64,000 bases of DNA from an uncultured Acidobacteriota bacterium (GTDB lineage Bacteria; Acidobacteriota; Thermoanaerobaculia; UBA5066), in assembly GCA_963779415.1 (NCBI GenBank), contig CAVZYA010000001.1, positions 512,001 to 576,000 on the forward strand, written 5' to 3'. The position numbers and the translations under genes were made by a program. Positions 3,022 through 23,933 of the stretch are shown one piece after another. Position 1 is the stretch's first letter, and each line of letters begins with the position of its first letter. The notes under the pieces were generated by a model. It was not told the DNA's origin. It did no database searches and saw nothing but the letters and a program-made list of their open reading frames with translations.

Positions 3022-5676
3022 TTATAGCCGCACCCGGTCGATCAAGACGACGTCGGAGTTCTCGCGGTAGCGGTCGAAGAGGATCTGCTTGCCGTCGGGC
3101 GATATGTCGAAGCTCTTGATGTCGAAGCCCGGGCGCAGCTTCGTGAGCTGCCGCAGCCGCCCGGTCGAGAGCTCCAGCAACCAGAAGTCCTGATTCCGGT
3201 AATGACCCTGCATCAGCGCCAGCGCCTTGCCGTCCGGCAGGAACCGATAACGATTGCCTCCGGCCGCGACCGTGACCTCCGGTAGGGGGAATGGCTGCTT
3301 CTCGGGCGTGACTCCCTTCAGCTGGTACGTGGGTCCCCCGTGATGTTCGGAGTACGCGATGAACCGTCCATCCGGCGACCAGACCGGGTCGTAGTTGTTC
3401 CCGCCCACCAGCCGCACCGGAGCTCCACCGTCCACGGGAACCTTGAAGAGCGGCTGCTCTTTCCCCTCGGAAGCGACGGCGGCGATCCACTTTCCGTCCG
3501 GAGACCAGGATGGGGCATCGCGGACATCGAGCGACTCCGAGACGCGGCGAGCACCGGTGCCATCCACGGCCATCATATGGAGGCGGGCCTGGTCCCCTTC
3601 CTGGACCACGAAGCAGATCCGCGTGCCGTCCGGCGAGATCGCCGGCGCGGCAGTCACCGAGCCCTCGGCGCCATTCCAGAGCTCGGTGTCCGAGCCGTCC
3701 TTGAACTTCCAGAGCCCGTCGGCGCCCCCCTTGGACGACAGAAAGAGAATGTAGCCGGGCCCGAATCGCGGAGCCGCCGCGCGCACCGCAGGAAGAGAAA
3801 ACCGGCTGACTCCCGGTTCGTCCACGACGTGCTCGGAGATCGGCGCCTTCCAGAGATGCGAGGTCGGATTCGCAACGGTCACGACGAGACGCCGGCCGTC
3901 GGCGCTCGCCGCGACCGAAAAGTACTCCTCGAGACCGAAGCTCACGGCGTGGGGAATCCGCCGGTCGACGTCCATGGCGTAGAGCCCCGATCCTGAGCCG
4001 TCCGGGCGCGAAGCCGTGTAGAGCAGCGTCCGCTCGTCGAGAAACGAGGGGTATGCCACGAGCGAGTCGTAGTTCGTCAGGCGCTCGGCCGTGCCGCCGG
4101 TCGACGGGATTCGCCAGATGTCCATGTGAAACGGGCTCGGTATTCCGTGGGCGAAATAGATGAAACGTCCGTCGGGGGACCACGCCGGAAAGTGGTTGTG
4201 GATGCCCGGCTTGTCGATGAAGATCTGCTTGGGATTGTCCCCGTTACGGTCGGCAACGAAGATCGGATCCCCGGGATCGGCCGTGTGGTAGACGATGCGC
4301 GCCCGGTCCGGCGACCACGCGATCGAGACGGCCGCGGTCAGAAACGGGCGCGCGTTGCCGCCCATCGTGGGCACGAGCCAGGCGTCCTCTCCCTTCCGGC
4401 CCCGGCGCGTGATCCGCATCCATACGTGCGCGTCATCGCCGGAAAAGCCGACATTGCGGACTCGATCGAGGTAGAGGTCCGGAAACTGGCCCCTGGAGAG
4501 ATTGAGGAACTGGTCGCTGCCCACCTGGGTGATCCAGGCGTCGAAGGGACCGTCCCGATCGGAAAGAAACGCGACAAACGTCCCGTCGTTCGAGATCGCC
4601 GCGTCCACCTCGGACCCTTCCCAGTCCGTCAGCCGCGTGAAGCGGGCGCCGGCAAGAGGGTTCTTCCAGAAGTAGTCGCGCTGACGGAGACGCCATCCGC
4701 CGATCCCGAGGGCAAGCAGAATCGCCGCGGCGATGACCGCCGGGATCCACCAGCGTCGTCGGCGGATCCGCTCGGTCACTCTCGGAAAGCCCTCGGGCGC
4801 GCTGATGGCCTCAGAAAGATGATCTCGAATCGTCGCGAGCTCGCGAGCGAGATCCTCCGTCGAGGCGTATCGGTTCCGCGGCTCCTTGGCCAGGCATCGC
4901 TCGATGATCCAGCGAACGGGGGCCGGTATCTTCGGATTCAGCGCCGAGATCGGCCCGGGCTCGTCCTGAATGATCGCTGTCAGCGTTTGCGGCGGCGAGG
5001 CACGCTGGAAAGCGCGCATCCCCGTCGCCATTTCGTAGAGGATCGACCCGAACGAGAACTGGTCCGACCGGAAGTCGACAGACCCTCCCGTCGCCTGCTC
5101 GGGAGACATGTAGCCGACGGTCCCCAGAACGACACCCGCACCGGTCTGGCCCGATACCGTCGGCGCCTGCGTCGCTTCGCCGCCGCTCGTGTCCGGCTGC
5201 GTCAGCTTCGCCAGGCCGAAGTCCAGAATCTTGACTAGGCCGTCGTCGGTCAGCATGAGGTTTTCGGGCTTCAGGTCCCGGTGGACGATCCCCGCGGCAT
5301 GGGCCTTCGCCATGCCTTCAGCCACCTGCGTGCCGACTTGAAGGAGCCGGCGAACCGGCAGCGCTCCCTGCAGCAGTACGGACCGGAGGGAGTCCCCCTT
5401 CACCAGCTCCATCGCGATGTAGGAGATGGAATCGGCCGTGCCGATGTCGTGGATCGCGACGATGTTCGGGTGGTTGAGCGCCGACGCTGACTGCGCCTCG
5501 CGTTCGAAGCGCTTCAGACGCTGCGGGTCCGAGGCGACTTCGGCGGGCAGTACTTTGATTGCCACCTCACGGCCGAGCCGCGTGTCCCGCGCGCGGTAGA
5601 CCTCGCCCATTCCTCCGGCCCCGAGCAGGCCGAGCAGCTCGTAGGGGCCCAGCCGCGTTCCGGACGAGACGTGCAT
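3022..5676 (-). CDS. Hanks-type Ser/Thr protein kinase with TM helix and TolB/PD40 beta-propeller
   Basis: [29 protein letters not shown]; TM segment [15 protein letters not shown]; repeated WSPDG motifs. Confidence 0.93.
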
Positions 5677-11959: not shown

Positions 11960-11999
11960 CCGTCAGACTTAATAACGTGCCTTCATGGAGGTCCAAAAC

Positions 12000-13484
12000 A
12001 TGGCGGAAAAAAGAAATGTCGAGATCAAGAGCCGACAGGACACGCTGGCTCTGATCACTCCAGAAATCAGGCCCTGGCCTGTCTCACCACCCCCTTCGCC
12101 GGAGGAAGTGAAGAAGTCCTACGCCAAGCGGAAAGCCGAGGTGTTCGGCCAGTGGCTCGAAGACAACATGCGTCTCGAGTATTCCTGGCAGAAACCCGAG
12201 GCCCTGCAGGGCCTGAAGGTCCTCGACATCGGGCTCTGGAGGCTGGGGCACAAGTTCGGCGCCTCCACGCTCGCGCAGGCCGGTGCCGAGGTGATCTGTA
12301 TCGAGCCCCCCACGGGCGACCCGCTCAGACAGCTGACCCCCTTCGGGCGGGAAGAGTACATGCTCGCCGACAAGGAAACCGGCGAGAAGTGCGGCCTCGG
12401 GTTCATCGACATACACCGGAACACGCACTCGGTCACCCTCAACGTCGAGACTCCGGAGGGGCAGGAGCTGTTCAAGAAGCTCGCGGTCCACGCCGACATC
12501 GTCCTTGACGGGATGCTCCCCGGCTACATGGACAACCTCGGGATCGGGTACCGGGACCTCTCCCAGATCAACTCCCGCCTCATCTACGTGAACGTCATGC
12601 TCCGGGGATCCTGGGGCCCGGCAAAAGACCGCGTCTCCAAGTTCGGCCAGTGGGAACTGGATCCCTTCGCGCAGGCGACCAATTCGTACATTCACAACAC
12701 CGGCTTCGCTCAGGACGCGCTGCCGCGCGGCAAAGGGGGCGACCCGACCCGGGCCGGGTCGTGGCTCGCCGACTATGTCGCCGGCGAGCAGGCGGCCGTC
12801 AACGCCCTCGCGGCGATCTACTGGCGGGAAGAGGTCAGCAATGAGGGGCAGTTCATCGAGGTGACCGGCGCCGAGACCCTGATGGACATCCTCGACTTCG
12901 ACATCTCCTGGTACGGCTTCAACGGCAGCATCAAGGCGCGGACAGGGGGATGGGACCCCAACCTGAACCAGTATGCGTGGAACCCGTGCCGGGACGGCTA
13001 CATGATGATCGGCGGCCAGAGCGACCGGCTCTGGTACCGGATCGGCATGTGCATCGAGCGGGACTTCCCGCAGTTCGGCCGGCTCATCCACGAAGACCCC
13101 TTCCTGAAGGAAGTCGGCGCGCGGAACGCCCTCCACGCCCTCATCAAGACCTACACCGTCACGACGCGCTGGCTCCGGGAGACCAATCGGATCGAGGCCG
13201 AAGAGAAGCTGATGGACTACGAGATCGCGGCCGGCCCGCTCCTCTTCATCGACGAGACCTGCGAGTTCCCCCACTTCAAGTACCGGCCCTGGGTCTACAA
13301 CTGCGAGACGGACTACGGGACCGTCCTCTACTCGACGGTCAATAACGCCTATCAGATGAGGACGCCGCACCGGGTCAAGTGGCTCGGGAGACGGCTCGGC
13401 AAGGACAACTACGACGTCTACCAGCGCTGGGCCGGACTGGGCCCGAACAAGGTGGACCAGCTCAAGGGAAAGGGGGCGATCTAA
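12000..13484 (+). CDS. Class III (CaiB/BaiF) CoA-transferase, subunit 1
   Basis: [55 protein letters not shown], putative catalytic Asp in WLADYVAG; GGAGG before ATG 12000. Confidence 0.85.
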
Positions 13485-14872
13485 TGGCCGGCGAGATCAG
13501 ACCCAAGAGTGCGGGCGAGCTGCATGAGATGCGGGCGCCCTACGAGGAGTTCTGCCGGAAGGCCTTCGATCCCGGCAACGAGCACTCGAAGCCCGAGTCG
13601 CTGAAGGGGATCCGGTGGCTCTCCTGCACGATGTACATCTTCACGCCCCACTCGGCCGCGAACCTGGCCGAGCTGGGCGCCGAGGTGATCAAGATCGAGA
13701 TCCCCCGGATGGGCGACGCCATGCGGCACACCTCGCCCTTCAACGAGGCGTACCTCTATCCCCTCCACGACACCCGGCCGGGGACGGGAACCGGGTTCGG
13801 GTTCACGAACGCCAACCCGAACAAGCACTTCATCTCCCTCGACTATCACGTACCGGAGATGCGGGAAGTTTTCTACAACATGGTCCGGCAGAGCGACGGG
13901 CTGACCGAGCTCTACCGTCCCGGGACCTTTGACCGCTGGAAGATGAGCTACCCGACCCTCGCGCAGATCAACCCGCGGTTCATCTACGTCTGGGGCGGCG
14001 GGTTCGGCTACGGGCCGAAGGTCTTCGGGGGCTCCTATGACATCCTCGCGCAGTCCCACGCCGGGTTCGCGTCCATCACCGGAATGCACGACTTCATGGG
14101 CGGCCACTGCTCCAAGTCATCCAACTGGGTCATGGACTGGGCCTCCGGCACCCTGATCACGTTCGGGATCCTCGCCTCCATTCTCTGGCGCCGGAAGACC
14201 GGCCTCGGCACCATGATCGAGTTCTCGCAGGTGCAGACCTCCACGATGTTCACCGAGTATGCCGTTCCTCTTTACGGCCGGTTCGGCATCGTCCGGCAGC
14301 GGTGGGGAAACTGGGACACCCAGCTCTGCGCCCACGGGATCATCCTTTGCGGCAAATCCGACTTCCCCGATGCCCAAAACCCGCAGGACAAGTTTGACGC
14401 CCGGTACGTCATGGTCTCCGCCTTCCAGGATGCGGACTTCAAGGAACTCTGCAACGTCGTCGGCCGGAAAGACATCTACGATAAATACAAAACGCACAAG
14501 GACCGGCTCGACCCCCGGGCCCAGGTCGACATCTACCAGGCGCTCGAGAAATGGGCCGGAGACAAGACCCGGGCGGCGGTGGTCAAGGTCCTGACCGACG
14601 CCGGCATCCTCGCCTCCCCCGTCATGAACGACCGGGAAGTCTACGAGTACGAGCACTACCGCGAGCGGGGCACCGTCCGCTGGATCGACGACCCCCTCTT
14701 CGGCGACTTCCTCCTGCAGGCCGGCTACAGCGCCGGCCACCTGGCCAAGACCCCGAGAAGGACGAACTGGATCTGGCGGCCCGTTGGCGCCGACAATGTC
14801 AAGATCTACCGGGATCTGCTCGGCTATCCACTGAGCAAGATCGAGGAGTGGTATGGCAAGGCCTACATCTAA
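13484..14872 (+). CDS. Class III (CaiB/BaiF) CoA-transferase, subunit 2
   Basis: [40 protein letters not shown], Asp in VMDWASG; ATG overlaps the upstream stop (TAATG). Confidence 0.87.
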
Positions 14873-14886
14873 AAGGAGGCAGCGCC

Positions 14887-15372
14887 GTGTGTGACATCAT
14901 CTGGTGCAAGAAGCAGGTTTCCGGCAAGACGTGCAACACCGTCAATTACCTGGACCCGTACAACTTCTGGAACTGGGAAGGCAAGGTGAACTGCGCCGAG
15001 TGCGGGACCGTCTACGCCATCCACATGATCCAGGGCTTCATGTACAAGGGGCCAACGGAGAAACCCGGAGAGAAGCCCGACATGAGTCCCCTCTACGCCG
15101 ACAAGCCGCTGGAGGGCTACCGGTGTTACCTTCCCGGGATCGAGGGCAGGACGAGGCCTTGGCAGTGCCTCCCCCGACATATCTACCTCGGCCACGCGGA
15201 CACGGTGAAGTGGAGCCTCCGCGGAAGACCCGTGCGTGGCTGGCGTCCTCAGCCGAAGTCTGCAGGCATCGCTGGAAGCTTCGGCCACAAGTGGGATATC
15301 GAGAAACTCTCACCGGAGATCTGGGCCGAATACCAGGAGAAGCTGAAGAGCGGGAAGCTGAAGGACTGGTGA
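14887..15372 (+). CDS. Hypothetical Cys/Trp-rich protein with N-terminal Zn-ribbon-like motif
   Basis: AAGGAGG RBS plus GTG; MCDIIWC-x8-C...CAECG; codon usage like the neighbouring genes. Confidence 0.72.
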   Translation: MCDIIWCKKQVSGKTCNTVNYLDPYNFWNWEGKVNCAECGTVYAIHMIQGFMYKGPTEKPGEKPDMSPLYADKPLEGYRCYLPGIEGRTRPWQCLPRHIYLGHADTVKWSLRGRPVRGWRPQPKSAGIAGSFGHKWDIEKLSPEIWAEYQEKLKSGKLKDW

Positions 15373-15394
15373 GACATTCAGAAAGGAGCGCCAC

Positions 15395-15655
15395 ATGGCC
15401 GAGGGAAAACAGTTAACGCCTGAAGAATTCCTGGCTACGGTTCTCGTGCCGCAGTATGGCCGGGAAAGCGGGCACATGTGCTGGGATTGCAAGCACTTCA
15501 AACCGGTTCTGAAGGGCTCCAAGTTCCCGCCCACCGACACGATCGGCTGGTGCACGCAGATCCACTGGCCCTTCTACTGGTGCGTGACGGACTTCAACGT
15601 CGTCAAGAAGTGCTACGCCTTCGAGAAGGGCATTTACACCTTCAAGAAGTTCTGA
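15395..15655 (+). CDS. Small putative Fe-S protein (BssB/BssC-like Cys spacing)
   Basis: AAGGAG RBS; CWDCKHF...GWC...KKCYAFEKG. Confidence 0.65.
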   Translation: MAEGKQLTPEEFLATVLVPQYGRESGHMCWDCKHFKPVLKGSKFPPTDTIGWCTQIHWPFYWCVTDFNVVKKCYAFEKGIYTFKKF

Positions 15656-15656
15656 C

Positions 15657-15950
15657 ATGGAGGAGAACGTCCGGAAGGAGCTGGATACGCTCACGGGGAT
15701 GGTGCTGACCTGGAAGAAGGACTATCTCGGGTCGGTATCATCCGATGAGGACTGCGAGTACCTCGCTCGGGAATTCCTGGACGAGGTGGAGACCCACGTC
15801 TACCCCTACGTGAGGAGGCTCATGGAATGCAATTTCCTCACGGGACCGGAGGCGACGGAGTTTCTCGACTCCTGCTATCGCCAGGCAGAGGAGCTGAACA
15901 AAGCCATCCAGCAGCCGGACGCCAAACAGGGTGAAACGATAGGAGGGTAA
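15657..15950 (+). CDS. Hypothetical small helical protein
   Basis: ATG 1 nt after the upstream stop; 97 aa acidic amphipathic sequence. Confidence 0.65.
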   Translation: MEENVRKELDTLTGMVLTWKKDYLGSVSSDEDCEYLAREFLDEVETHVYPYVRRLMECNFLTGPEATEFLDSCYRQAEELNKAIQQPDAKQGETIGG

Positions 15951-15952
15951 AC

Positions 15953-16372
15953 ATGGCTGAGAAATGCCGAGTGGGGGTCTGCGGGTACGACCCCGTTCTG
16001 GTGAAGGGATACGTCAAGACAGGCGAGCGAGCCCTCTGGTGGCACCTGTCGGACGAGGTGTACGAACAATACCAGGTGAAGCCGGGTGACACCGTCACCG
16101 GGAAGATCCTGGCGGTTTACGACGGGACCGGCACGAAGACGGCCTCCCCGAACGAGCCCTTCGAGTGGAAGTGCCCGAAGGAGTCGGGCCTGGCGGTCCT
16201 CCTGCCGCCTGCGACCATCGTCAAGTTCAAGCTCTCCGCTTTCCATTTCCTCGAGCTGCTCGTGGAGAAGGTCGGCGGAAAGGACGTCTATCCCGGCAAG
16301 GAGCAGATGAGCTTGAAATGGTGGCCCGAAGAGAGGATGAAGCTCGACTACAAGGTGCCTTACATCGAGTAG
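15953..16372 (+). CDS. Hypothetical protein, possibly a tandem swapped-hairpin (AbrB-like) barrel
   Basis: AGGAGG RBS; two similar segments WHLSDEVYEQYQVKPGDTV and LLPPATIVKFKLSAFHFL; fold call is inference. Confidence 0.65.
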   Translation: MAEKCRVGVCGYDPVLVKGYVKTGERALWWHLSDEVYEQYQVKPGDTVTGKILAVYDGTGTKTASPNEPFEWKCPKESGLAVLLPPATIVKFKLSAFHFLELLVEKVGGKDVYPGKEQMSLKWWPEERMKLDYKVPYIE

Positions 16373-16466: not shown

Positions 16467-16512
16467 CCCCCTCTCCTGGCCCTGAAGCACCAGGAGAGGG
16501 GGATTCTTTTTC
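16467..16512 (+). terminator. Rho-independent terminator closing the CoA-transferase operon
   Basis: Perfect 13-bp stem CCCCCTCTCCTGG / CCAGGAGAGGGGG followed by ATTCTTTTTT. Confidence 0.8.
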
Positions 16513-16566: not shown

Positions 16567-16809
16567 ATGACAGAACACGACAAGCCGAATGAAGAGGGCT
16601 ACACGGCTCCGGCGTACGTCGACCCGGCGATGGGCGACAGCCCCCCCGTCGGAGGCCTGATTGACAACGAGGCCGTCTGCCGGGACTGCATGACCGCCGC
16701 CGAGGAAGTCAGCATGCGGCGCGGGTTTGTCGACCCCGTCTCCGAGCAGCAGGCCAAGGCGAAGGGGACCGTCTGCGCCCGGTGCGGCAAGAAACTCGTC
16801 GCCGCGTAG
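16567..16809 (+). CDS. Small Zn-finger protein (CxxC...CxxC)
   Basis: GGGAG RBS; VCRDC...VCARCGKKL. Confidence 0.68.
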   Translation: MTEHDKPNEEGYTAPAYVDPAMGDSPPVGGLIDNEAVCRDCMTAAEEVSMRRGFVDPVSEQQAKAKGTVCARCGKKLVAA

Positions 16810-16852
16810 CGCCCCCTTCAATCCAGCCGGACGGGGCGGGCGGAATCACCTC

Positions 16853-17266
16853 ATGGCAGAGCCGGAAAAGGCCCCACGACGAGAGGTCGTCGAGCAGCTC
16901 CTGCCGCTCGTGGTGGAGTTGATTCCAGGGCAGGCGGCTGAAGGCCTGATCGAAGTGCTCGAGCCGGGCAGCTACGAGGCCCATTCCCTCCGGACGCTTT
17001 GCGAGAATCTCCTCAGGAGAACGAACTGGAGCGTGGAGGAGCAGCAGGTCCTGGAGGACATCAGGAGACAGCTCGACGGGGGCCGGCTCCTCTGCCGGGG
17101 CCGACCCGTCGACGGCCGGGCTCTGGATCTCGCGGTGGTCGAGGAAACCGAAGCAGGCGAGAAGTATCTCTATGTGCCTGTCCACGCCATCAGGCCGCAG
17201 GAAGGCGGAGGCGCGGCACCCCGGATCGCGCACCAAAGTTCAGCAGACGAGAGCAGGAGCCTATGA
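16853..17266 (+). CDS. Putative ubiquitin-like (beta-grasp) protein with di-Gly motif and C-terminal extension
   Basis: RLLCRGRPVD resembles ubiquitin RLIFAGKQLE; final strand YLYVPVHAI then RPQEGG and an 18-aa tail; E1, E2-like and JAB genes adjacent. Confidence 0.6.
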   Translation: MAEPEKAPRREVVEQLLPLVVELIPGQAAEGLIEVLEPGSYEAHSLRTLCENLLRRTNWSVEEQQVLEDIRRQLDGGRLLCRGRPVDGRALDLAVVEETEAGEKYLYVPVHAIRPQEGGGAAPRIAHQSSADESRSL

Positions 17267-17469
17267 GTTCCAGGTTCGTAGTCACGGAGAGCACCACGGT
17301 GGACGATGTTGCCGCGGCGGGCCGGCCCGACCCCCTCTACTGCAAACTCGGCCTGGGCCAGCAGGCCCGCGTCCTCGCGGACGAGATCGATGCCGCGCTT
17401 GGTGGGGATACGAGCTGCGGGGGCGCCGGACTCGGATATGTTCCGGACATCGTAGAGGTTGAAGAATAG
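17263..17469 (+). CDS. Small hypothetical protein (68 aa) with DTSCGG and acidic tail
   Basis: AGGAG RBS; ATG overlaps the upstream stop (ATGA); MSSRFVVTE...VPDIVEVEE. Confidence 0.55.
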   Translation: MSSRFVVTESTTVDDVAAAGRPDPLYCKLGLGQQARVLADEIDAALGGDTSCGGAGLGYVPDIVEVEE

Positions 17470-17482
17470 CCTGGAGAATCGC

Positions 17483-17677
17483 GTGGAGATAGAGGCTCCC
17501 AAGGACTGGGACCCGAAGTGCCCAAAGTGCCAGGAAGAGCTTCGACGAATGCTCGAGCTGTCACAGTCGGTCTACGAGGACCTCGACCACGGCGCGGGGT
17601 TGTACCGGTTGCCGTTGCCACCTTGCACGCACCATGCGGCGCAGGGCGAGCACAAAGACGCAGGAGGGGTCGCTTGA
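17483..17677 (+). CDS. Small putative Zn-binding protein
   Basis: GGAG plus GTG; KCPKC...PPCTHH. Confidence 0.5.
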   Translation: MEIEAPKDWDPKCPKCQEELRRMLELSQSVYEDLDHGAGLYRLPLPPCTHHAAQGEHKDAGGVA

Positions 17678-17717
17678 CAGACCCACTTGTGGCTTTCCGG
17701 CCGTCGGGCGCCCCGGC

Positions 17718-18929
17718 ATGATGGATCTGCTGGAGTCCGACCTGGAGCTCGTCGTCCGGTCAGGATTCATCTACCTGCCGCTCCTCTTTGATCCTTCGGT
17801 GGCGACGGAGATCGAGGGGAACGTGGGCAATCACCTGGTCGCCCGGGACGCCGGCAGGCATTTCGTTCGGACGATGAGCCTGCGATCGCTCGTTTCAAGC
17901 TACGAGGCTCTCTGGCCGAAGTCGTACGAGAAGTTGCGGCGGTCGAAGCTGTGCCGGTTCTCCGGGGACCTTTCGCCGGCCGAAACGGGCGCCAGCGAGC
18001 GGCTGAAGGAGATCCTCTTCTCCGTCATGCCGCACTTCGTCAGGAGGGGGAAGCGGCTCGACAGGAGGCGGCTGACCGAGGAGGACGTGCTGGACCTCAT
18101 CGAGGAGAGAACCGGACTTCCCGGCGGATACGCCATGGCTGCAGCCAGCGCTCGGGATCCGGGCTCCATCCGGCAGATCCTCGTGGAACTCGAGGAACGC
18201 CGCCCGGCGGCCGAGCCGCTGCCCGAGGGCCGAATGTCTGCGCGGACCCTCGCGGATTGGCTTCTGCGCGCCCAGGAAGCCCGGATTCTGGAAGAGGAGA
18301 GCCAGCGACTGACGGGGTTTCTCTCCGCGCAGGAGGGCCTCGATACGAGGGCGGCCAGGCGGCTGGCGATTTTGCGGTGCGTCGCGGAGAAGGGGACGTT
18401 GGAAATCGACGGATTCGGCTTTCTGAGGACAGGACCCGGCGACGACTACGTGATCTACAAGCGCACCGGCGAGTTCGCTCTCAAGGACTACTACGGTCGG
18501 CTCTATCTGTTTCCGGATTGCCGGGTTGCCGTGTCGACGGCCGCTGGCCTCAGGCCCTTCGTCGTGGAGACCTACAAGCATCCGTTTCTCGAGGCCCACG
18601 ACTCCGGCCAGGAGATCTGCCTGGGCCGCACCACGGCGCGCCGCTTCTCCGGAGCGGCGGCGATCGTCGAGGCTCTGCAGGAGGGAATCAACGCCCTGCT
18701 CCATGGCTACAGCAGCCGGCGCCGAAACGGGTACCACAGACTGGAGGGACTGTTGAGGTCGGTCCGGCTCCCTGGCCCGGACGATCCCGGCTACCCGGAA
18801 CCGCCGGACGACAGGCCCCGCTCCAAGCGGCACATCCTGGACGTCGACTTCGACGACTACCGCATCCCGGCCGATCACCCCGGGATCGTGTCGGGTCGGG
18901 TCGAGATCACCAACGACGTCGTGCCGTGA
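17718..18929 (+). CDS. Putative prokaryotic E2/UBC-like conjugating protein with long helical N-terminus
   Basis: YKHPFLEAHDSGQEICLG resembles UBC HPN-x(n)-GxICL with a Cys, preceded by beta-strands and followed by a helix; start uncertain. Confidence 0.55.
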   Translation: MMDLLESDLELVVRSGFIYLPLLFDPSVATEIEGNVGNHLVARDAGRHFVRTMSLRSLVSSYEALWPKSYEKLRRSKLCRFSGDLSPAETGASERLKEILFSVMPHFVRRGKRLDRRRLTEEDVLDLIEERTGLPGGYAMAAASARDPGSIRQILVELEERRPAAEPLPEGRMSARTLADWLLRAQEARILEEESQRLTGFLSAQEGLDTRAARRLAILRCVAEKGTLEIDGFGFLRTGPGDDYVIYKRTGEFALKDYYGRLYLFPDCRVAVSTAAGLRPFVVETYKHPFLEAHDSGQEICLGRTTARRFSGAAAIVEALQEGINALLHGYSSRRRNGYHRLEGLLRSVRLPGPDDPGYPEPPDDRPRSKRHILDVDFDDYRIPADHPGIVSGRVEITNDVVP

Positions 18930-19402
18930 TGACGACGGACGACACCCTCTCGCGGGACGAGCCGCCCCGGGCGACGCCGGATCTGTTGCGGGACATAAGA
19001 ACCATGCGCGCCGGCAGGCGGCGGAAGGAGCCCTTTCGGACGAGCCTCTACTCCCGGGTCGGGGGTCTGGTGAGGCGATATGGCCTGGACGAGGCGTTCC
19101 TCCGGGCGCTCGACTCCCCGGGCGGCTTCTCCCGGGACGGCCGTCCGGATGCCGTCCGGCCGAAGGGGAAAGCGCCCTATGCTCCTCCCCTCTTTTTCCT
19201 TTCCACGGAGAGAGAGCACCGCGTGACGACGGTCATCCTGGAGAAAGTGAAGAGCCCGTTCCTCGCGTACGCCACGTCGCCCGACGAGATTCTCCTCTGC
19301 GAACGCCTGTTCCGTGAGGACCCGTCCCTTTCTCAGGAAACGCTCGCGTGCCATCATTTCGAGACGTTGATGCCGGCCGGAGCGGATTCCGGGCCGGGCT
19401 GA
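18929..19402 (+). CDS. Hypothetical protein within the Ubl cluster
   Basis: ATG overlaps the upstream stop (TGATG); fills the gap to the ATPase gene. Confidence 0.6.
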   Translation: MTTDDTLSRDEPPRATPDLLRDIRTMRAGRRRKEPFRTSLYSRVGGLVRRYGLDEAFLRALDSPGGFSRDGRPDAVRPKGKAPYAPPLFFLSTEREHRVTTVILEKVKSPFLAYATSPDEILLCERLFREDPSLSQETLACHHFETLMPAGADSGPG

Positions 19403-19417
19403 GGCGGGAGGAGAGTC

Positions 19418-20518
19418 GTGGAACGGATTTCGCCGCAACGCCGCCGGGAGATCGGGGAGAGAGTCGGCGCATTCCGCGAGAGCCAGGTCGGCGACGCCGT
19501 CAATCAGATTCTCGAGTTCGACAAGACGCCGGCCGACCTCAAGGCCTACATGGACCGGTTCGTCATCGGCCAGGAGCAGGGGAAGAAGATCATCTCCGTC
19601 GGCATCGCCTACCATTACCGGAGGCTCGCGGCGGCCCTCAGGCGCGCCGTCGTCGAGAACGGCGAGGAGCTGGGCGCCGCCTTGCACGGCGCGGCCACGC
19701 CGAAGGCCAACATCCTGATCGTGGGGCCCCCCGGCTGCGGGAAGACCTACACGGGCGAGGTCGCCTCCCGGCTCGTGGGGGTGCCGTTCGCCGTGGAGGA
19801 CCTGACGAAGTTCAGCGAAACGGGCTACGTGGGCCAGAACGTGAGCGACATCCTCCTGGACCTGCTGATCGCGGCCGGCGGCAACCCCCAGGTGGCCCAG
19901 ATGGGCATCGTCTACCTGGACGAGATCGACAAGATCGCCGCCGAGCCGATCGTCTCGAAGGACGTGTCGGGGCGCGGGGTCCAGAAGGGGCTCCTCAAGC
20001 TCGTCGAGGGGGCCGAGAACACCATCGACCTGGGCCAAGAACGGATCTCCCTTTCCACCCGACACGTCCTGTTCATCGCAGGAGGCGTGTTCGAGGGGCT
20101 GGAAGGAACCGTCGGAAAGCGGATGGAAAGGGATCGTCTCGAAGGCGAGTGGAAGGACCACCTCCTCACGGACGACTTCGTCGGCTGCGGGATGGAGCGG
20201 CAGCTCATGGGGAGGTTCCCCGTTCGGGCCGTCTACGACCCGCTCAGCGTCGAAGACCTCAAGAACATCCTGCTCGAGAGCGAGGAGAGTCCGTCCCGCG
20301 CCTACATCGACGACCTGAAGGCGTGGAACATCGAACTCCGGTTCACGGACGGCGCTCTCACGGAGGTCGCGAGGCGCGCGCAGCAGGATCGGACGGGCGC
20401 CCGGGGACTCATCGGCATCCTCCACAAGGTGCTTCTGGAGGACATGTACCGGCTTCCGGGCGTCCACACCGGCGAGCTGGTGGTGGACGAGAAGTACATC
20501 CGGGAGCGGCTCGGGTGA
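19418..20518 (+). CDS. ClpX-like AAA+ ATPase lacking Zn-binding domain, RKH loop and IGF loop
   Basis: VIGQ, Walker A GPPGCGKT, pore loop GYVG, Walker [20 protein letters not shown], sensor II TGARGL. Confidence 0.88.
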
Positions 20519-21321
20519 GATTCCGGGGGCTCTCGGAGCTGAAGCGCGCGCCATGCTTCGAGGCTCCCGTGGGAACCCTGCCGGAGTGGATCCGGATGAC
20601 GCGTCACTCCCTCGCGAAGGCCTTCAAGATCAACGAGCTCGTCCGGTCCGTCCACGGGGACAGCTACGAGTGGTACGGATTCACCGTCGCCGAGCGGAGC
20701 GATCCGGAGCTGGTCGTGGACGTTCTTCTTCCGGCCAACGACGAGAACTTCACGGACCACACCCGCGTCGCACCCGAGGCGATCGACGCGTCGAGAGAGT
20801 CCCTCCCCCGGGATCGGGTGATCAACGGCTGGATCCACTCCCACGGGGCCCTGCCGTACGAAGGGTTCTCCTTCGTGGACGAGAGGAACCAGGAGGCCGT
20901 GACCGATTACGTGAACACGCTTCTCAGGAAGCCGGTGGCCAAGAAGGAGATCCTGATCAGGGACCTCGCGATCCTCGTCGAGGGCCGCTTCTCGGAGAAG
21001 GAGCTGGAGCAGGGAAGCGTCGCGCTCATCACCGACGCCCCCGTCAAGGAGGCCCGGATCATCGAGACCATATACGGAAGCTTCTGCTTCGCCATCGTCA
21101 TCGGCGACGACGGCTGGCACAGGCAGCAGGTCCATTACCGCAGGCGGGGCATCCTTTCCGGGCAGACGACCGAGGAGAGCCGGGACACCGACATCGTCCT
21201 TTCGGGCGACGCGCGGCCGCTCACCGAGGCGGAGATCCAGATGCTGGCGGACGAGGTCCGCACCCGGATCCGGCCGGGCGTGGCCGTTCCACCCGAGCGG
21301 TTCGAGCGGGAGGCGACATAA
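20515..21321 (+). CDS. JAB/MPN+ (JAMM) metallo-isopeptidase
   Basis: Glu in YEWYGF plus GWIHSHG-x7-SFVD; GTG overlaps the ATPase stop (GTGA). Confidence 0.82.
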
Positions 21322-21358
21322 GGTCGGCGGCGGCCTGGGGCGAAGGGACGCGATCGGC

Positions 21359-22636
21359 ATGGAGACGGGACCGGCTCGCGAGAAGGCGCATGACCCGAGG
21401 CTGGACCGCCAGCTCCGGATCCCGAACTGGAACCAGCGGGCCCTCGAGGAGGCGCGGCTCGCCGTCTTCGGCGACGACGACCTTCTCGCCTCGCTCTACG
21501 TCCTCTCCGCCGCGGCCCTCGGCGTGAACGACGTCGTCCTGATCGCGCCCGCCTGGAATGAGAAGCTGATCGAAATCGCCCGCCAGCTCAATCCGAGGCT
21601 CAGGCTGGCCCTCCTCGAGGGGCTCCACACCCACCCGGTCCTGGAGGAGCTCTTCAGGCCCTGCACGGCCATCGTGGACCTCACCCGCTACGCTCTGGCC
21701 AACAAGCTTCTGCTGGAGACGGGCTACCGGTCGGGAATTCCGGTGATCCGTGGGTTCTGCCTCGAGAAAGACGGGTGGGAAGGGCTCTCCGTCTTCACCT
21801 ACAGGCGCGGCCGGGAGTGGGAGGAGCTCCGGGAGCTCGTCTCGCCCTCCAATCTTCCCTGCGACCACTTCGACGACGCGATTCTGGCCCTCGTCGCGGC
21901 CGGCATCGCCCTGGAAGAAACCAAGAACGTCATCATGGGACACCGGGTGTCGGAGGAGCTGATCGGCTACAGGCGGCCGAAGGTGGTTCCCCTGGAGCCC
22001 GACTCCGGCGTCATCATCGTCGGCGCCGGCGCCCTGGGTAACTTCGTCGGGCTCGGACTGGCCTGTACGGGGCTCCGGCGAATCACGGTCGTCGATCCCG
22101 ACGTGGTGGACGTGACTAACCTCAACAGGCAGGTGCTCCTGGCCGGCGGCGTAGGCCGAAGCAAGGCCGAGGTCCTCTGCGAGCGCCTGCACTCCCTCTT
22201 CGGAATCCGGGCGGAGGCCCGGGTGGCTTATTTCCGGAAGGACTCCGAGCTCGACGCCTCCGACGCTGTCTTCGATTGCGTGGACAACTTCGAGACCCGG
22301 GTGATCCTGAGTGAGAGGTGCCGGGAAGAGGGAAAGGTGCTCATCAGCGGCGGCACGGGCCCTCAGGCCGGACAGGTCATCGTGTTCGATCCGGCGCGCC
22401 CGAGCGAAACGCCCGCGGAGGTTCTGGGACTCTACGAAATCGTCGAGAGGCGGGAGATCGACGCCTTCCGGAGGGAGACGGCGTCCTGCGCCTACCAGCC
22501 CGATCCGTCCGTCGTCATGACGAATCAGATTATCGGAGGATTGATGGCCGATTCCTATCGTAGGCTCCTGGCCGGAGAGGAGACCCCGAATATCTTCTAC
22601 GATTCGAGGAACGACGCCCGGATCTTCGGGGGGTGA
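21359..22636 (+). CDS. E1-like (ThiF/MoeB/UBA) activating enzyme with tandem inactive and active adenylation domains
   Basis: N-half RLDRQLRI...AVFGDDDLL lacks GxGxxG; C-half IIVGAGALG, DPDVVDVTNLNRQ, GRSKA, DCVDN; candidate catalytic Cys in TASCAY. Confidence 0.88.
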   Translation: METGPAREKAHDPRLDRQLRIPNWNQRALEEARLAVFGDDDLLASLYVLSAAALGVNDVVLIAPAWNEKLIEIARQLNPRLRLALLEGLHTHPVLEELFRPCTAIVDLTRYALANKLLLETGYRSGIPVIRGFCLEKDGWEGLSVFTYRRGREWEELRELVSPSNLPCDHFDDAILALVAAGIALEETKNVIMGHRVSEELIGYRRPKVVPLEPDSGVIIVGAGALGNFVGLGLACTGLRRITVVDPDVVDVTNLNRQVLLAGGVGRSKAEVLCERLHSLFGIRAEARVAYFRKDSELDASDAVFDCVDNFETRVILSERCREEGKVLISGGTGPQAGQVIVFDPARPSETPAEVLGLYEIVERREIDAFRRETASCAYQPDPSVVMTNQIIGGLMADSYRRLLAGEETPNIFYDSRNDARIFGG

Positions 22637-22709
22637 TAGAGTCGCGGCGAATTGCGTCCTGACGTGATGCGACGGCGAAAGGCCGCGGATCAGGGCCGAA
22701 GGAGCCGAG

Positions 22710-23933
22710 ATGAGCAGCGAGAACGACGTCGCGCAGACTCAGGAGGACCAGCCGATCGGCTGGCAGCGCCTCGGCGACGTCCTGACACCGCCGATTCCCG
22801 GCTTCGAGGACCTCCTCTTCCTTCCGAGCCTCGACAATCAGTCCTCCAACATCTACGTCCTGCCGGGGGACTGCGTAACGATCGTGGACCCGGGGAACGA
22901 TTACACGGCCTTAATGGAGCTCTTCCCTGCGAGAGCCAGGCCCGAGGACGTCAGGAAGATCGTCCTGACGCACGGGCATTTCGACCACGCCATGGGGGCG
23001 CTCGAGTTCCTCAGGACGTATCCGGATCGCCCCACGGGCGCGCGCATCGAGCTGATCCTCCACGAAGGGGGTCCCGACCAGTTCAAGCAGACGGCGAGGG
23101 AGCAGGGCGCCTCCGTGACCGAGGTACGGGGCGGGGAGACTCTCGAGCTGAGCGGCCTTTCCTTCGACGTGATCTACACGCCAGGCCATACCATCGACGG
23201 CATCGCCCTCTATCACGCCCCCTCGAGGACCGTCTTCAGCGGCGACGTCGTGCTGCCGCTCGCGGTAGCCGGACCCGATCCCAAGGCCGGGGGAAGCCTG
23301 GACCAGTACCTGTTCGGGCTGAGGGCGTTGCTCGCGAGGGAGATCGAGAACGTCCTCCCGGGCCACGGCCCCGTCGTCGGCCCGGGCGGGAGGAAGGTCA
23401 TCGAGCAGACCTACGAGGCCGTCATGATGAAGCTCCTGGGGGTCGAGAAGCCGATCCCGTGGATCCAGGGTGCCATTCAGCTCGCGGAGCGCGGGCTGCT
23501 GGAAGAGGCCGTTTTCTGCGCCGGGAAAGAGCTGGCCCGCGACCCGGGGCACGCCAAGGCCCTCGAGCTCAAGGCCGTGTGCCTCAACGATCTCGGGCGG
23601 TCGTCTGAGGCCCTCGAGGTCCTGGATCGGCTGCAGGAGCTGCAGGCCGGCGACGATGCGTTCATCCACGTCGGCAGGGGATATGCCCTCATGGGGCTTG
23701 GCCAGTTCGAGGAGAGCGTCAAGTGCTTCGACGCCGCTCTCCGCATCACGCCGGGCCTGAGGGACGCGCTCGTCTACAAGGGGATGGCCCTCCATCTCTC
23801 GGGGAACCACGAGGAGGCCATGGACATCGAGCCCTTCAGGACGGAGTTCATGGGGCGGTTCCGGAGCGAGCTGCTCAAGGCGTCGCGGCCCGCCCCGAAG
23901 GATGGCCTCGCCGAAGGCACTGGAAAGGCCTGA
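22710..23933 (+). CDS. Metallo-beta-lactamase-fold hydrolase with C-terminal TPR repeats
   Basis: THGHFDH, TPGHT, FSGD, PGHG; TPR-like helices in the C-terminal third. Confidence 0.85.
   Translation: MSSENDVAQTQEDQPIGWQRLGDVLTPPIPGFEDLLFLPSLDNQSSNIYVLPGDCVTIVDPGNDYTALMELFPARARPEDVRKIVLTHGHFDHAMGALEFLRTYPDRPTGARIELILHEGGPDQFKQTAREQGASVTEVRGGETLELSGLSFDVIYTPGHTIDGIALYHAPSRTVFSGDVVLPLAVAGPDPKAGGSLDQYLFGLRALLAREIENVLPGHGPVVGPGGRKVIEQTYEAVMMKLLGVEKPIPWIQGAIQLAERGLLEEAVFCAGKELARDPGHAKALELKAVCLNDLGRSSEALEVLDRLQELQAGDDAFIHVGRGYALMGLGQFEESVKCFDAALRITPGLRDALVYKGMALHLSGNHEEAMDIEPFRTEFMGRFRSELLKASRPAPKDGLAEGTGKA

Follow-up and report, generated by a model that had tools for sequence, protein, structure and literature searches.

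A dense run of plus-strand open reading frames occupies roughly 16.5–24 kb of the window, by which we mean the whole 64,000-nucleotide (nt) stretch analysed here (contig CAVZYA010000001.1 of the uncultured Acidobacteriota bacterium GCA_963779415.1). At its core lie six genes that represent a real and conserved type of bacterial ubiquitination-like operon, apparently not described before. They encode a candidate ubiquitin-like (Ubl) tag precursor of 137 amino acids (aa; 16853..17266), a 403-aa E2-like protein (17718..18929), a conserved 157-aa protein of no known family (u157; 18929..19402), a 366-aa ClpX-family AAA+ unfoldase core (19418..20518), a 268-aa JAMM/MPN+ metallopeptidase (20515..21321), and a single-chain E1 of 425 aa (21359..22636). 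Three small genes lie in the same run: one for an 80-aa protein with a C-terminal CxxC (16567..16809; G+C content at the third codon position (GC3) 0.88; weak zinc-ribbon matches, E = 0.009–0.04), one for a 68-aa protein that matched no family (s68; 17263..17469), and one for a 72-aa protein (s72; 17459..17677), which probably binds zinc, the Cys/His positions of its CPKC...CTH motif being kept in the alignment. The run closes with a gene for an MBL-fold hydrolase with a TPR tail (22710..23933). All frames are open at or near the coordinates first assigned to them, and every gene of the region shows the GC3 > GC1 > GC2 codon-position pattern at a window G+C content of 66%. The tight coupling described in the original prediction was confirmed, with coding-type composition throughout and four overlapping junctions: ATGA at 17263-17266 (tag gene and s68), 11 nt shared by s68 and s72, 1 nt at 18929 (E2-like gene and u157), and GTGA at 20515-18, where the stop of the ClpX-like gene overlaps the start of the JAMM gene.

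The gene set recurs well beyond this genome. A scan of one genome per species yielded 44 loci, in which tblastn with the window proteins located the E2-like gene in 44, u157 in 42, the tag gene in 40, and the ATPase, JAMM, and E1 genes in 36, 33, and 32, respectively. The usual order is tag, E2-like, 157-aa, ATPase, JAMM, and E1, with u157 always directly after the E2-like gene, while four loci (L023, L032, L035, and L043; L numbers denote loci) have E1 ahead of the tag gene. Core genes are missing mostly at contig ends, and for the split loci of the L019, L028, and L025 genomes, the JAMM gene was found elsewhere in the genome. A lack of co-conservation had been named beforehand as a point that would tell against the system; the same order instead recurs across the 44 loci. 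Because this order recurs so widely and scoring of 7998 database candidates gave the E2-like protein 667 relatives at E ≤ 0.001 (none of them named, family length constant), the locus goes beyond a chance arrangement. The “four small or unknown proteins” counted earlier do exist as genes, but only the 157-aa one is conserved (42/44): s72 was found in 6 loci (closest relatives only), s68 in 1, and the 80-aa gene in 0, and these three are lineage-specific. The loci come mainly from metagenome-assembled genomes (MAGs) of Thermodesulfobacteriota (Syntrophobacterales, Desulfobaccales, and Desulfobacterales), with others labelled Methylomirabilota, Binatia, and Acidithiobacillales, and with one cultured strain, Desulfoferrobacter suflitae DRH4 (L032). 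In a sample of 122 genomes from one class, 47 carry the E2-like gene, whereas it was found in none of the 300 other genomes of the window's phylum (301 sampled, 275 of high quality). No match to the cassette was found in 72,556 plasmids, 50,697 phages, or viral contigs, and no peptidase other than JAMM is conserved in the 44 loci.

Some accessory genes accompany the cassette elsewhere. In 12 of the 44 loci, a gene for an ArsR/SmtB-type winged-helix regulator (HTH_5, 7.9e-11; e.g. L012:9252-9611) lies directly upstream of the tag gene, hinting at regulated rather than constitutive expression. Ten loci (e.g. L002:3642-3974 and L032:7992-8306) encode, in varying positions, a coiled-coil protein of about 100 aa whose conserved C-terminal motif reads P-[WR]-[IL]...L-[WF] and for which Pfam has no family; it is not encoded in the window.

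On sequence grounds, the family assignments of the E1 and the ATPase are firm. The E1 matches Pfam ThiF (1.7e-35) at residues 216-411, and the two-domain architecture proposed for it was borne out. Its N-terminal half is a degenerate adenylation-like domain with GDDD at the place of the nucleotide-binding glycine loop, and its C-terminal half carries the GAGALG, NLNRQ, and DNFETR motifs of an active domain together with an invariant Cys377 in a short insertion of about 35 residues. Compared with the Protein Data Bank (PDB), the E1 profile matches yeast Uba1 best (1.6e-21, two matched stretches), followed by MoeB, Uba4, SAE2, ThiF, MccB, and Cap2; a match to PaaA was also obtained.

The ATPase likewise proved to be ClpX-like, as predicted, with matches to Pfam AAA_2 (6.6e-18) and NCBIfam ClpX (1.4e-76). 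Its ClpX scores stay below the family cut-offs (258 bits against 359, and 235 against 370.75), while the canonical ClpX of the same genome scores 635.7 bits. The two proteins are 36% identical and belong to the same AAA+ subfamily, sharing the Walker A and B motifs, the GYVG pore loop, and the GARGL sensor. Unlike ClpX, however, the cassette ATPase has no N-terminal Cys4 zinc-binding domain in the alignment with the genome's own ClpX, and it shows deletions of 13 residues at the docking-tripeptide site and of 7 residues at the RKH-loop site. In ClpX, the docking loop binds ClpP and the RKH loop binds substrate tags; as judged from the first deletion, the cassette ATPase is predicted to be unable to dock ClpP.

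The JAMM peptidase gene had been read from ATG 20596. It most likely starts at GTG 20515, because the 27 residues encoded upstream of the former start are conserved in 25 homologues. The identification as a JAMM protein itself stood, the metal-binding-type Glu/HxH/Ser/Asp set (E25, H81, H83, S92, and D95, counting from Met 20596) being invariant in 26 sequences. The one family-relevant match in a profile search against the PDB was weak, to the archaeal Rpn11-like structure 6fju (E = 0.75), in which GWIHSH is aligned with GWYHSH, and in Atlas the protein scores 0.94 to a cluster in which 48% of the members carry Prok-JAB.

The tag candidate had been proposed from its RPQEGG end and tail, and this part of the proposal is supported by its homologues. 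RPQEGG occupies residues 114-119, the body runs to Gly118-Gly119 (base 17209), and an 18-residue tail follows. Among 30 close homologues, the body is 57–90% identical and PQEGG is invariant, followed by 0–40 unconserved residues; two close homologues end exactly at GG, with no tail. In 34 divergent homologues (20–53% identity), G118 is invariant, G119 is kept in at least 90%, and the tails comprise 0–19 residues. A full-library HMMER search with the tag profile (1.84 billion representatives) returned only 68 relatives; the long repeat proteins P0283, P0305, P0307, and P0309 were set aside as low-complexity look-alikes. At L007:9144-9962 and L009:9144-9962, the tag frame continues past GG into a complete GNAT (RimI-like) acetyltransferase domain, and tblastn indicates the same fusion at this place in L010. 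These fusion loci belong to Desulfobacca/Desulfobacteraceae; L006 has a stand-alone GNAT gene located between those for the peptidase and the E1 (L006:13870-14505), and a GNAT is present in just 4 of the 44 loci. A constant GG end followed by a variable tail or a fused enzyme is the behaviour of a ubiquitin-type precursor, with the cleavage itself predicted. We also considered a precursor of a ribosomally synthesized and post-translationally modified peptide with a double-glycine leader; this candidate was dropped on account of the tail-less homologues and the unconserved tails of the others. One further protein, P0277 (326 aa), joins the first ~55 tag residues to the E2-like protein from about residue 60; it may have arisen by deletion or reflect an error of assembly or gene calling.

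For the E2-like protein, the HPFL...ICLG segment on which the original prediction was based lies at residues 288-303. In an alignment of 30 sequences, conservation is complete or almost complete for H288, P289, C301, a GYSSRRRNGY block, and a DH motif in the C-terminal part. H288-P289-F290 and C301 together form an HPN-type motif followed by a Cys, at a spacing longer than in canonical E2s. An AlphaFold2 (AF2) model of the 403-aa protein reached a mean predicted local distance difference test (pLDDT) score of 74.3. In an exhaustive VIA-align search with this model, UBC-type E2s or E2-containing chains made up 10 of the top 15 rows (Z 5.5–6.2), including Cap2 (7to3) and the bacterial BubB (9eav, Z 5.6), with a CdnG-E2 complex (8hsb) next at Z 5.1. 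In a second look, E2s filled 10 of the top 12 rows, the best being UBE2S (Z 6.7, 117 residues, root-mean-square deviation (rmsd) 4.2 Å). Overall, the E2 matches have Z scores of 5–6.7 and an rmsd of about 4 Å over 115–130 residues, in a range (Z < 8) that the tool flags as possibly a common arrangement. Since the aligned range begins near residue 90 and resumes after about residue 225, the protein seems to consist of an N-terminal domain (~1-88) and a UBC-like core split by a helical insertion (~108-225). A search for shorter stand-alone relatives of the C-terminal half gave 40 matches, all fragments of the same family and without a Pfam domain. Taken with the invariant residues, the model makes an E2 fold likely.

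Several results weigh against reading these proteins as a tag and its enzymes, and most concern the tag and the E2-like protein, whose folds are only probable. The beta-grasp fold expected of a Ubl was not obtained for the tag: the AF2 model built from the 30 close homologues has a pLDDT of 47.7, and at this confidence its element order (two strands, helices, and short strands) is compatible with a beta-grasp but not diagnostic. VIA-align on this low-confidence model gave a best Z of 3.4, with a ubiquitin-like domain at rank 33 (Z 2.4) that amounts to noise. Profile searches of the PDB with the close and the divergent tag alignments gave no ubiquitin-like match, Pfam gave none for 34 members of the tag family, and the best Atlas score for the tag (0.88) led to no family. 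For the E2-like model, Foldseek returned nothing from the PDB at E ≤ 0.001, and comparison with PDB sequences yielded 2 chance matches by sequence and 0 by profile. No curated E2 model in Pfam, NCBIfam, or PADLOC matched it, leaving no sequence link to any E2 family. The JAMM protein gave no significant family match in Pfam, NCBIfam, or PDB sequences, and the predicted loss of ClpP docking by the ATPase comes from a sequence alignment. Three runs of a predicted complex of the E1 with the mature tag (0.00, 0.73, and 0.00) were inconsistent and count neither way. The tag, E2-like, JAMM, and 157-aa proteins have no match in Pfam, NCBIfam, or PADLOC. With four core proteins out of six thus outside any curated family, annotation currently overlooks the set.

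Upstream of the cassette lies a metabolic unit (11985..16372, plus strand) that might be connected with its function. It begins with two family III CoA-transferase genes (11985-13484 and 13379-14872; Pfam CoA_transf_3, 8.7e-61 and 1.9e-69) and continues with four small Cys/Trp-rich genes (~14899-15372, 15395-15655, 15657-15950, and 15953-16372) without a Pfam family. A terminator-like hairpin at 16467..16512 on the same strand (perfect 13-bp stem, 10-nt loop, and T-rich tail) would close this operon and set the cassette apart from it. The hairpin was read directly from the sequence; the automated scan has a loop limit of 8 nt and hence does not list it. The MBL-TPR hydrolase (Pfam Lactamase_B, 5.7e-24, plus TPR), which had been counted with the cassette, does have both domains but is, by its gene neighbourhoods, the last gene of the CoA-transferase unit. 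We assign it there because it adjoins the unit in cassette-free genomes too: the fourth small gene and the hydrolase gene stand side by side in the cassette-free genomes G365, G355, G322, G329, and G330. By our own count, each of the two occurs in 74 of the 122 genomes and both in 71, and in L002-L006, L025, and L032 the hydrolase gene comes immediately after the fourth small gene. In the window and in L001, the cassette is inserted between the small genes of the unit and its hydrolase, whereas the Desulfobacca MAG L025 (L025:1-6281) has the E2-like gene alone after the unit and hydrolase and the JAMM gene on another contig (L055).

The co-conservation of cassette and CoA-transferase operon, proposed as a check, held only in part. 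The unit adjoins the cassette in 10 of the 44 loci, in tandem, convergent, or inserted arrangements, and the markers of both lie 4–20 kb apart on one contig in 12 genomes of the 122-genome class. In that class, the unit marker gene is present in 37 of 47 cassette carriers compared to 37 of 75 non-carriers (hand tally), a comparison that ignores the kinship of the genomes and so overstates the link. Speaking against the CoA-transferase as client, 34 of the 44 loci have no such unit within 10 kb, and 10 of the 47 carriers lack the marker, so that the client may be a different one. The cassette and the CoA-transferase block were probably acquired together, as both markers occur in this genome alone among 301 of the phylum, the small-protein marker of the unit having been found in none of the 300 others. 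The G+C content of the window at 12001-16000, which covers the CoA-transferase and small genes, is 0.61–0.64 compared to 0.63–0.71 in the rest, and this fits a horizontally acquired block.

Two observations concern the unit and its surroundings. Its third small protein (15657-15950) ends in GG here and in 2 of 7 homologues (L005 and L006); it was considered as a second tag and rejected, with only 3 of 8 homologues GG-ended, and its GG end is probably due to chance. In D. suflitae, the hydrolase of the CoA-transferase unit is separated from the cassette by a pair of class-II glutamine-amidotransferase-like genes plus one for Amidoligase_2 (L032:3608-6133, minus strand), with an FKBP gene beside them.

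Among described systems, the Bil (bacterial ISG15-like) operons, BilABCD of Type I and II, come closest. As set out in the portion of the Bil description available to us (PMC10557695), these operons encode a Ubl, an E2, a JAB peptidase, and an E1 in this order, the E1 having an inactive and an active adenylation domain. As far as that portion goes, the cassette resembles them in that the candidate Ubl with its GG end, the E2-like protein, the JAB/JAMM peptidase, and the E1 each have a gene of their own, arranged as Ubl-E2-deubiquitinase (DUB)-E1, and in that its single-chain E1 has, by sequence, an apparently inactive (GDDD) and an active-type (GAGALG) adenylation half. By the same account, it differs in having the 157-aa and ClpX-like genes between E2 and peptidase, in an E2-like protein of 403 aa with an HP...C motif and no BilB-type CEHH (Cys, then Glu, His, His) downstream of the Cys, and in an E1 Cys insertion of about 35 residues compared to about 80 in Bil. 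It also lies in a metabolic setting rather than a defence island. The cassette may work like a Bil-type cascade, but we do not file it as a Bil member, since it departs from Bil in its E2 motif, additional genes, and setting and is recognised by no family model. The Bub (bacterial ubiquitination-like) operons of Type I and II also contain a bacterial Ubl/E2/E1 set, and the Citrobacter BubCD-BubB-BubA structure (9eav) is the one matched by the E2-like model at Z 5.6. In the accessible part of their description, Bub operons have fusions (Ubl-E2, JAB-E1, or E2-E1) and a DUF6527 serine protease (10.1101/2024.11.21.623966), none of which the cassette has. Bub operons are without the ATPase.

Similarity to other systems is limited to individual domains. 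A ThiF-type E1 domain and a JAB peptidase are shared with Cap2/Cap3 of the Type II cyclic-oligonucleotide-based antiphage signalling system (CBASS) and with the 6A-MBL set (Iyer 2006, rows 6a and 6b), but in those systems E2 and E1 are fused and either a cyclase is conjugated or a Ubl is missing, and the MBL gene adjacent to the cassette belongs to the other operon. Accordingly limited were the model matches, which involve the E1 domain only (PADLOC E1-E2 models up to 6.7e-16 and NCBIfam 6A-MBL cap2_3 at 5e-12, all far below cut-off). Of the PRTRC models in NCBIfam, only PRTRC_ThiF matches (51.5 bits, cut-off 144.75). In contrast to ThiS/MoaD relays, the cassette has an E2-like protein and lacks rhodanese and desulfurase domains. 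Ubiquitin-dependent unfoldases with a JAMM or other tag-removing partner include the Rpt ring with Rpn11, Cdc48/p97, the archaeal SAMP-JAMM-AAA system, and the bacterial Pup-Mpa-Dop system, although Pup conjugation uses neither E1 nor E2. With these the cassette has in common a C-terminally activated small tag, an AAA+ unfoldase, and a tag-removing peptidase, but its ATPase belongs to the ClpX/HslU clade instead of the classic AAA proteins, and there is no proteolytic chamber. The early survey of prokaryotic E1/E2/JAB sets, in the sections available (Iyer 2006, rows 6a-6e, PMC1779556), gives MBL, nucleotidyltransferase, or zinc-finger partners, and its sole Clp link there is ClpS in a ThiS/JAB operon. 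A full-text literature search for ClpX or AAA+ proteins with Ubl, E1, E2, or JAB found no description of the gene set, with subscription journals and the supplementary operon tables of Bil and Bub outside its scope, and no paper in it joins “ClpX” with ThiF or JAMM terms. The view that the set is unlike described systems has therefore held up: it matches no Bil, Bub, CBASS, PRTRC, or 6A-MBL model, and no paper describing it was found.

Taking these features together, we consider it reasonably likely that the cassette tags proteins in a ubiquitination-like manner and supplies its own unfoldase, which acts independently of a protease. The tag would be made as a precursor that the JAMM peptidase cuts after the invariant Gly-Gly. 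The active ThiF domain of the E1 would then adenylate the tag C-terminus and load the tag on Cys377, from where it could be handed to Cys301 of the E2-like protein. Since no E3 is encoded, the N-terminal and helical extras of the E2-like protein probably pick the target. A hexamer of the ClpX-like protein, with its pore loop kept and ClpP docking predicted to be lost, might engage tagged proteins, perhaps via the 157-aa protein, and unfold or extract them, and the translationally coupled JAMM peptidase would strip and recycle the tag. The 157-aa protein, whose alignment shows no Cys/His catalytic pattern, is a candidate adaptor. What the sequences contribute to this scheme is that the residues needed for each step are conserved, that no E3, protease chamber, or sulfur-transfer domain is present, that the ATPase and JAMM genes are coupled, and that the ClpP-docking region is lost. 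The adjacent multi-subunit CoA-transferase enzyme would be the likely client, tagged for assembly, repair, or turnover; it is the best candidate we have, but a tentative one. A narrower version of the scheme, in which the cassette is a p97-like bacterial segregase that tags subunits of the CoA-transferase enzyme with its four Cys-rich partners and uses the protease-free ClpX-like motor and JAMM peptidase to extract a subunit for assembly or repair, appears unlikely. If true, the proteasome cap's Rpn11-on-ATPase arrangement would exist here in an ancient form that stands by itself and serves enzyme maintenance instead of degradation or immunity.

Other explanations of the same genes have to be weighed against a tagging system with its own unfoldase. 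The resemblance to Bil raises the question of anti-phage defence, in which phage proteins would be tagged on infection and the unfoldase would dismantle the tagged assemblies. The parts and their order (Ubl-E2-DUB-E1) are those of the Bil operons, which act in defence according to the available parts of the two descriptions (PMC10557695; 10.1101/2024.11.21.623966), and the sporadic occurrence in the window's phylum (1/301 genomes) points to horizontal gain. Carriage by 47 of the 122 genomes in the sampled class, on the other hand, would be unusually common for a defence system. PADLOC matched no part other than the generic E1 domain, the surveyed plasmids, phages, and viral contigs gave no match, and the cassette is repeatedly tied to one metabolic operon and has metabolic flanks, where a scan of 20 proteins showed neither defence nor mobile genes, all of which makes a defence role improbable.

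The metabolic neighbours could also suggest a sulfur carrier or the biosynthesis of a cofactor or peptide, where the GG protein would be adenylated and thiocarboxylated, or its tail would be a modified peptide, for a cofactor of the Cys-rich CoA-transferase, and the JAMM peptidase would merely unmask GG. ThiS/MoaD-JAB-E1 neighbourhoods without protein conjugation are known from the available sections of Iyer 2006 (PMC1779556), the E1 profile also matches MoeB, ThiF, MccB, and PaaA, and the adjacent enzymes have Cys-rich subunits. Yet Pfam and NCBIfam identified no rhodanese, cysteine desulfurase, or sulfurtransferase domain in the cassette, the E1 has a two-domain, eukaryote-like form and not the homodimeric one of ThiF/MoeB, and neither a UBC-like protein with an invariant Cys nor a ClpX-type unfoldase would serve a role in such a pathway. 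The tails, which are missing in some homologues and unconserved in others, do not behave as core peptides either, and we regard this explanation as having a low probability. A third possibility, that the tag marks proteins for degradation, would have the ATPase feed them to a peptidase encoded elsewhere through another interface, in a proteasome-like manner. ClpX/HslU family members usually partner a peptidase, a canonical ClpX and an HslU-like gene exist elsewhere in the genome, and Pup-Mpa-proteasome is a bacterial precedent for a degradation tag. However, JAMM is the only peptidase conserved in the 44 loci, and the cassette ATPase lacks the region where the genome's own ClpX holds its ClpP-docking tripeptide; a degradation tag thus seems hardly probable.

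To our knowledge, E1/E2-type tagging in bacteria has so far comprised the anti-phage Bil and CBASS systems, plus Bub, none of which includes an unfoldase. If the proposed tagging system with its own unfoldase is correct, bacteria would combine the “tag, unfold, untag” logic known from p97 and the proteasome cap with E1/E2 chemistry. A concrete candidate client is suggested by the repeated association with one metabolic operon, and the cultured carrier D. suflitae DRH4 opens the system to testing.

The wider surroundings of the cassette are metabolic, as had been predicted, with the CoA-transferases upstream and an AMP-ligase downstream. On the 3′ side of the locus lie genes for an AMP-dependent ligase and a cytidylate-kinase-like/BON protein, and the metabolic or housekeeping genes that flank it include, besides those for the pair of family III CoA-transferases, genes for an MFS transporter, an AMP-ligase, an aldehyde dehydrogenase, an aminotransferase, and a phosphoenolpyruvate-utilising enzyme. 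Farther upstream, the minus strand of the window (3022-5676) encodes an 884-aa protein in which a Ser/Thr protein kinase is joined to PD40/WD40-like beta-propeller repeats.

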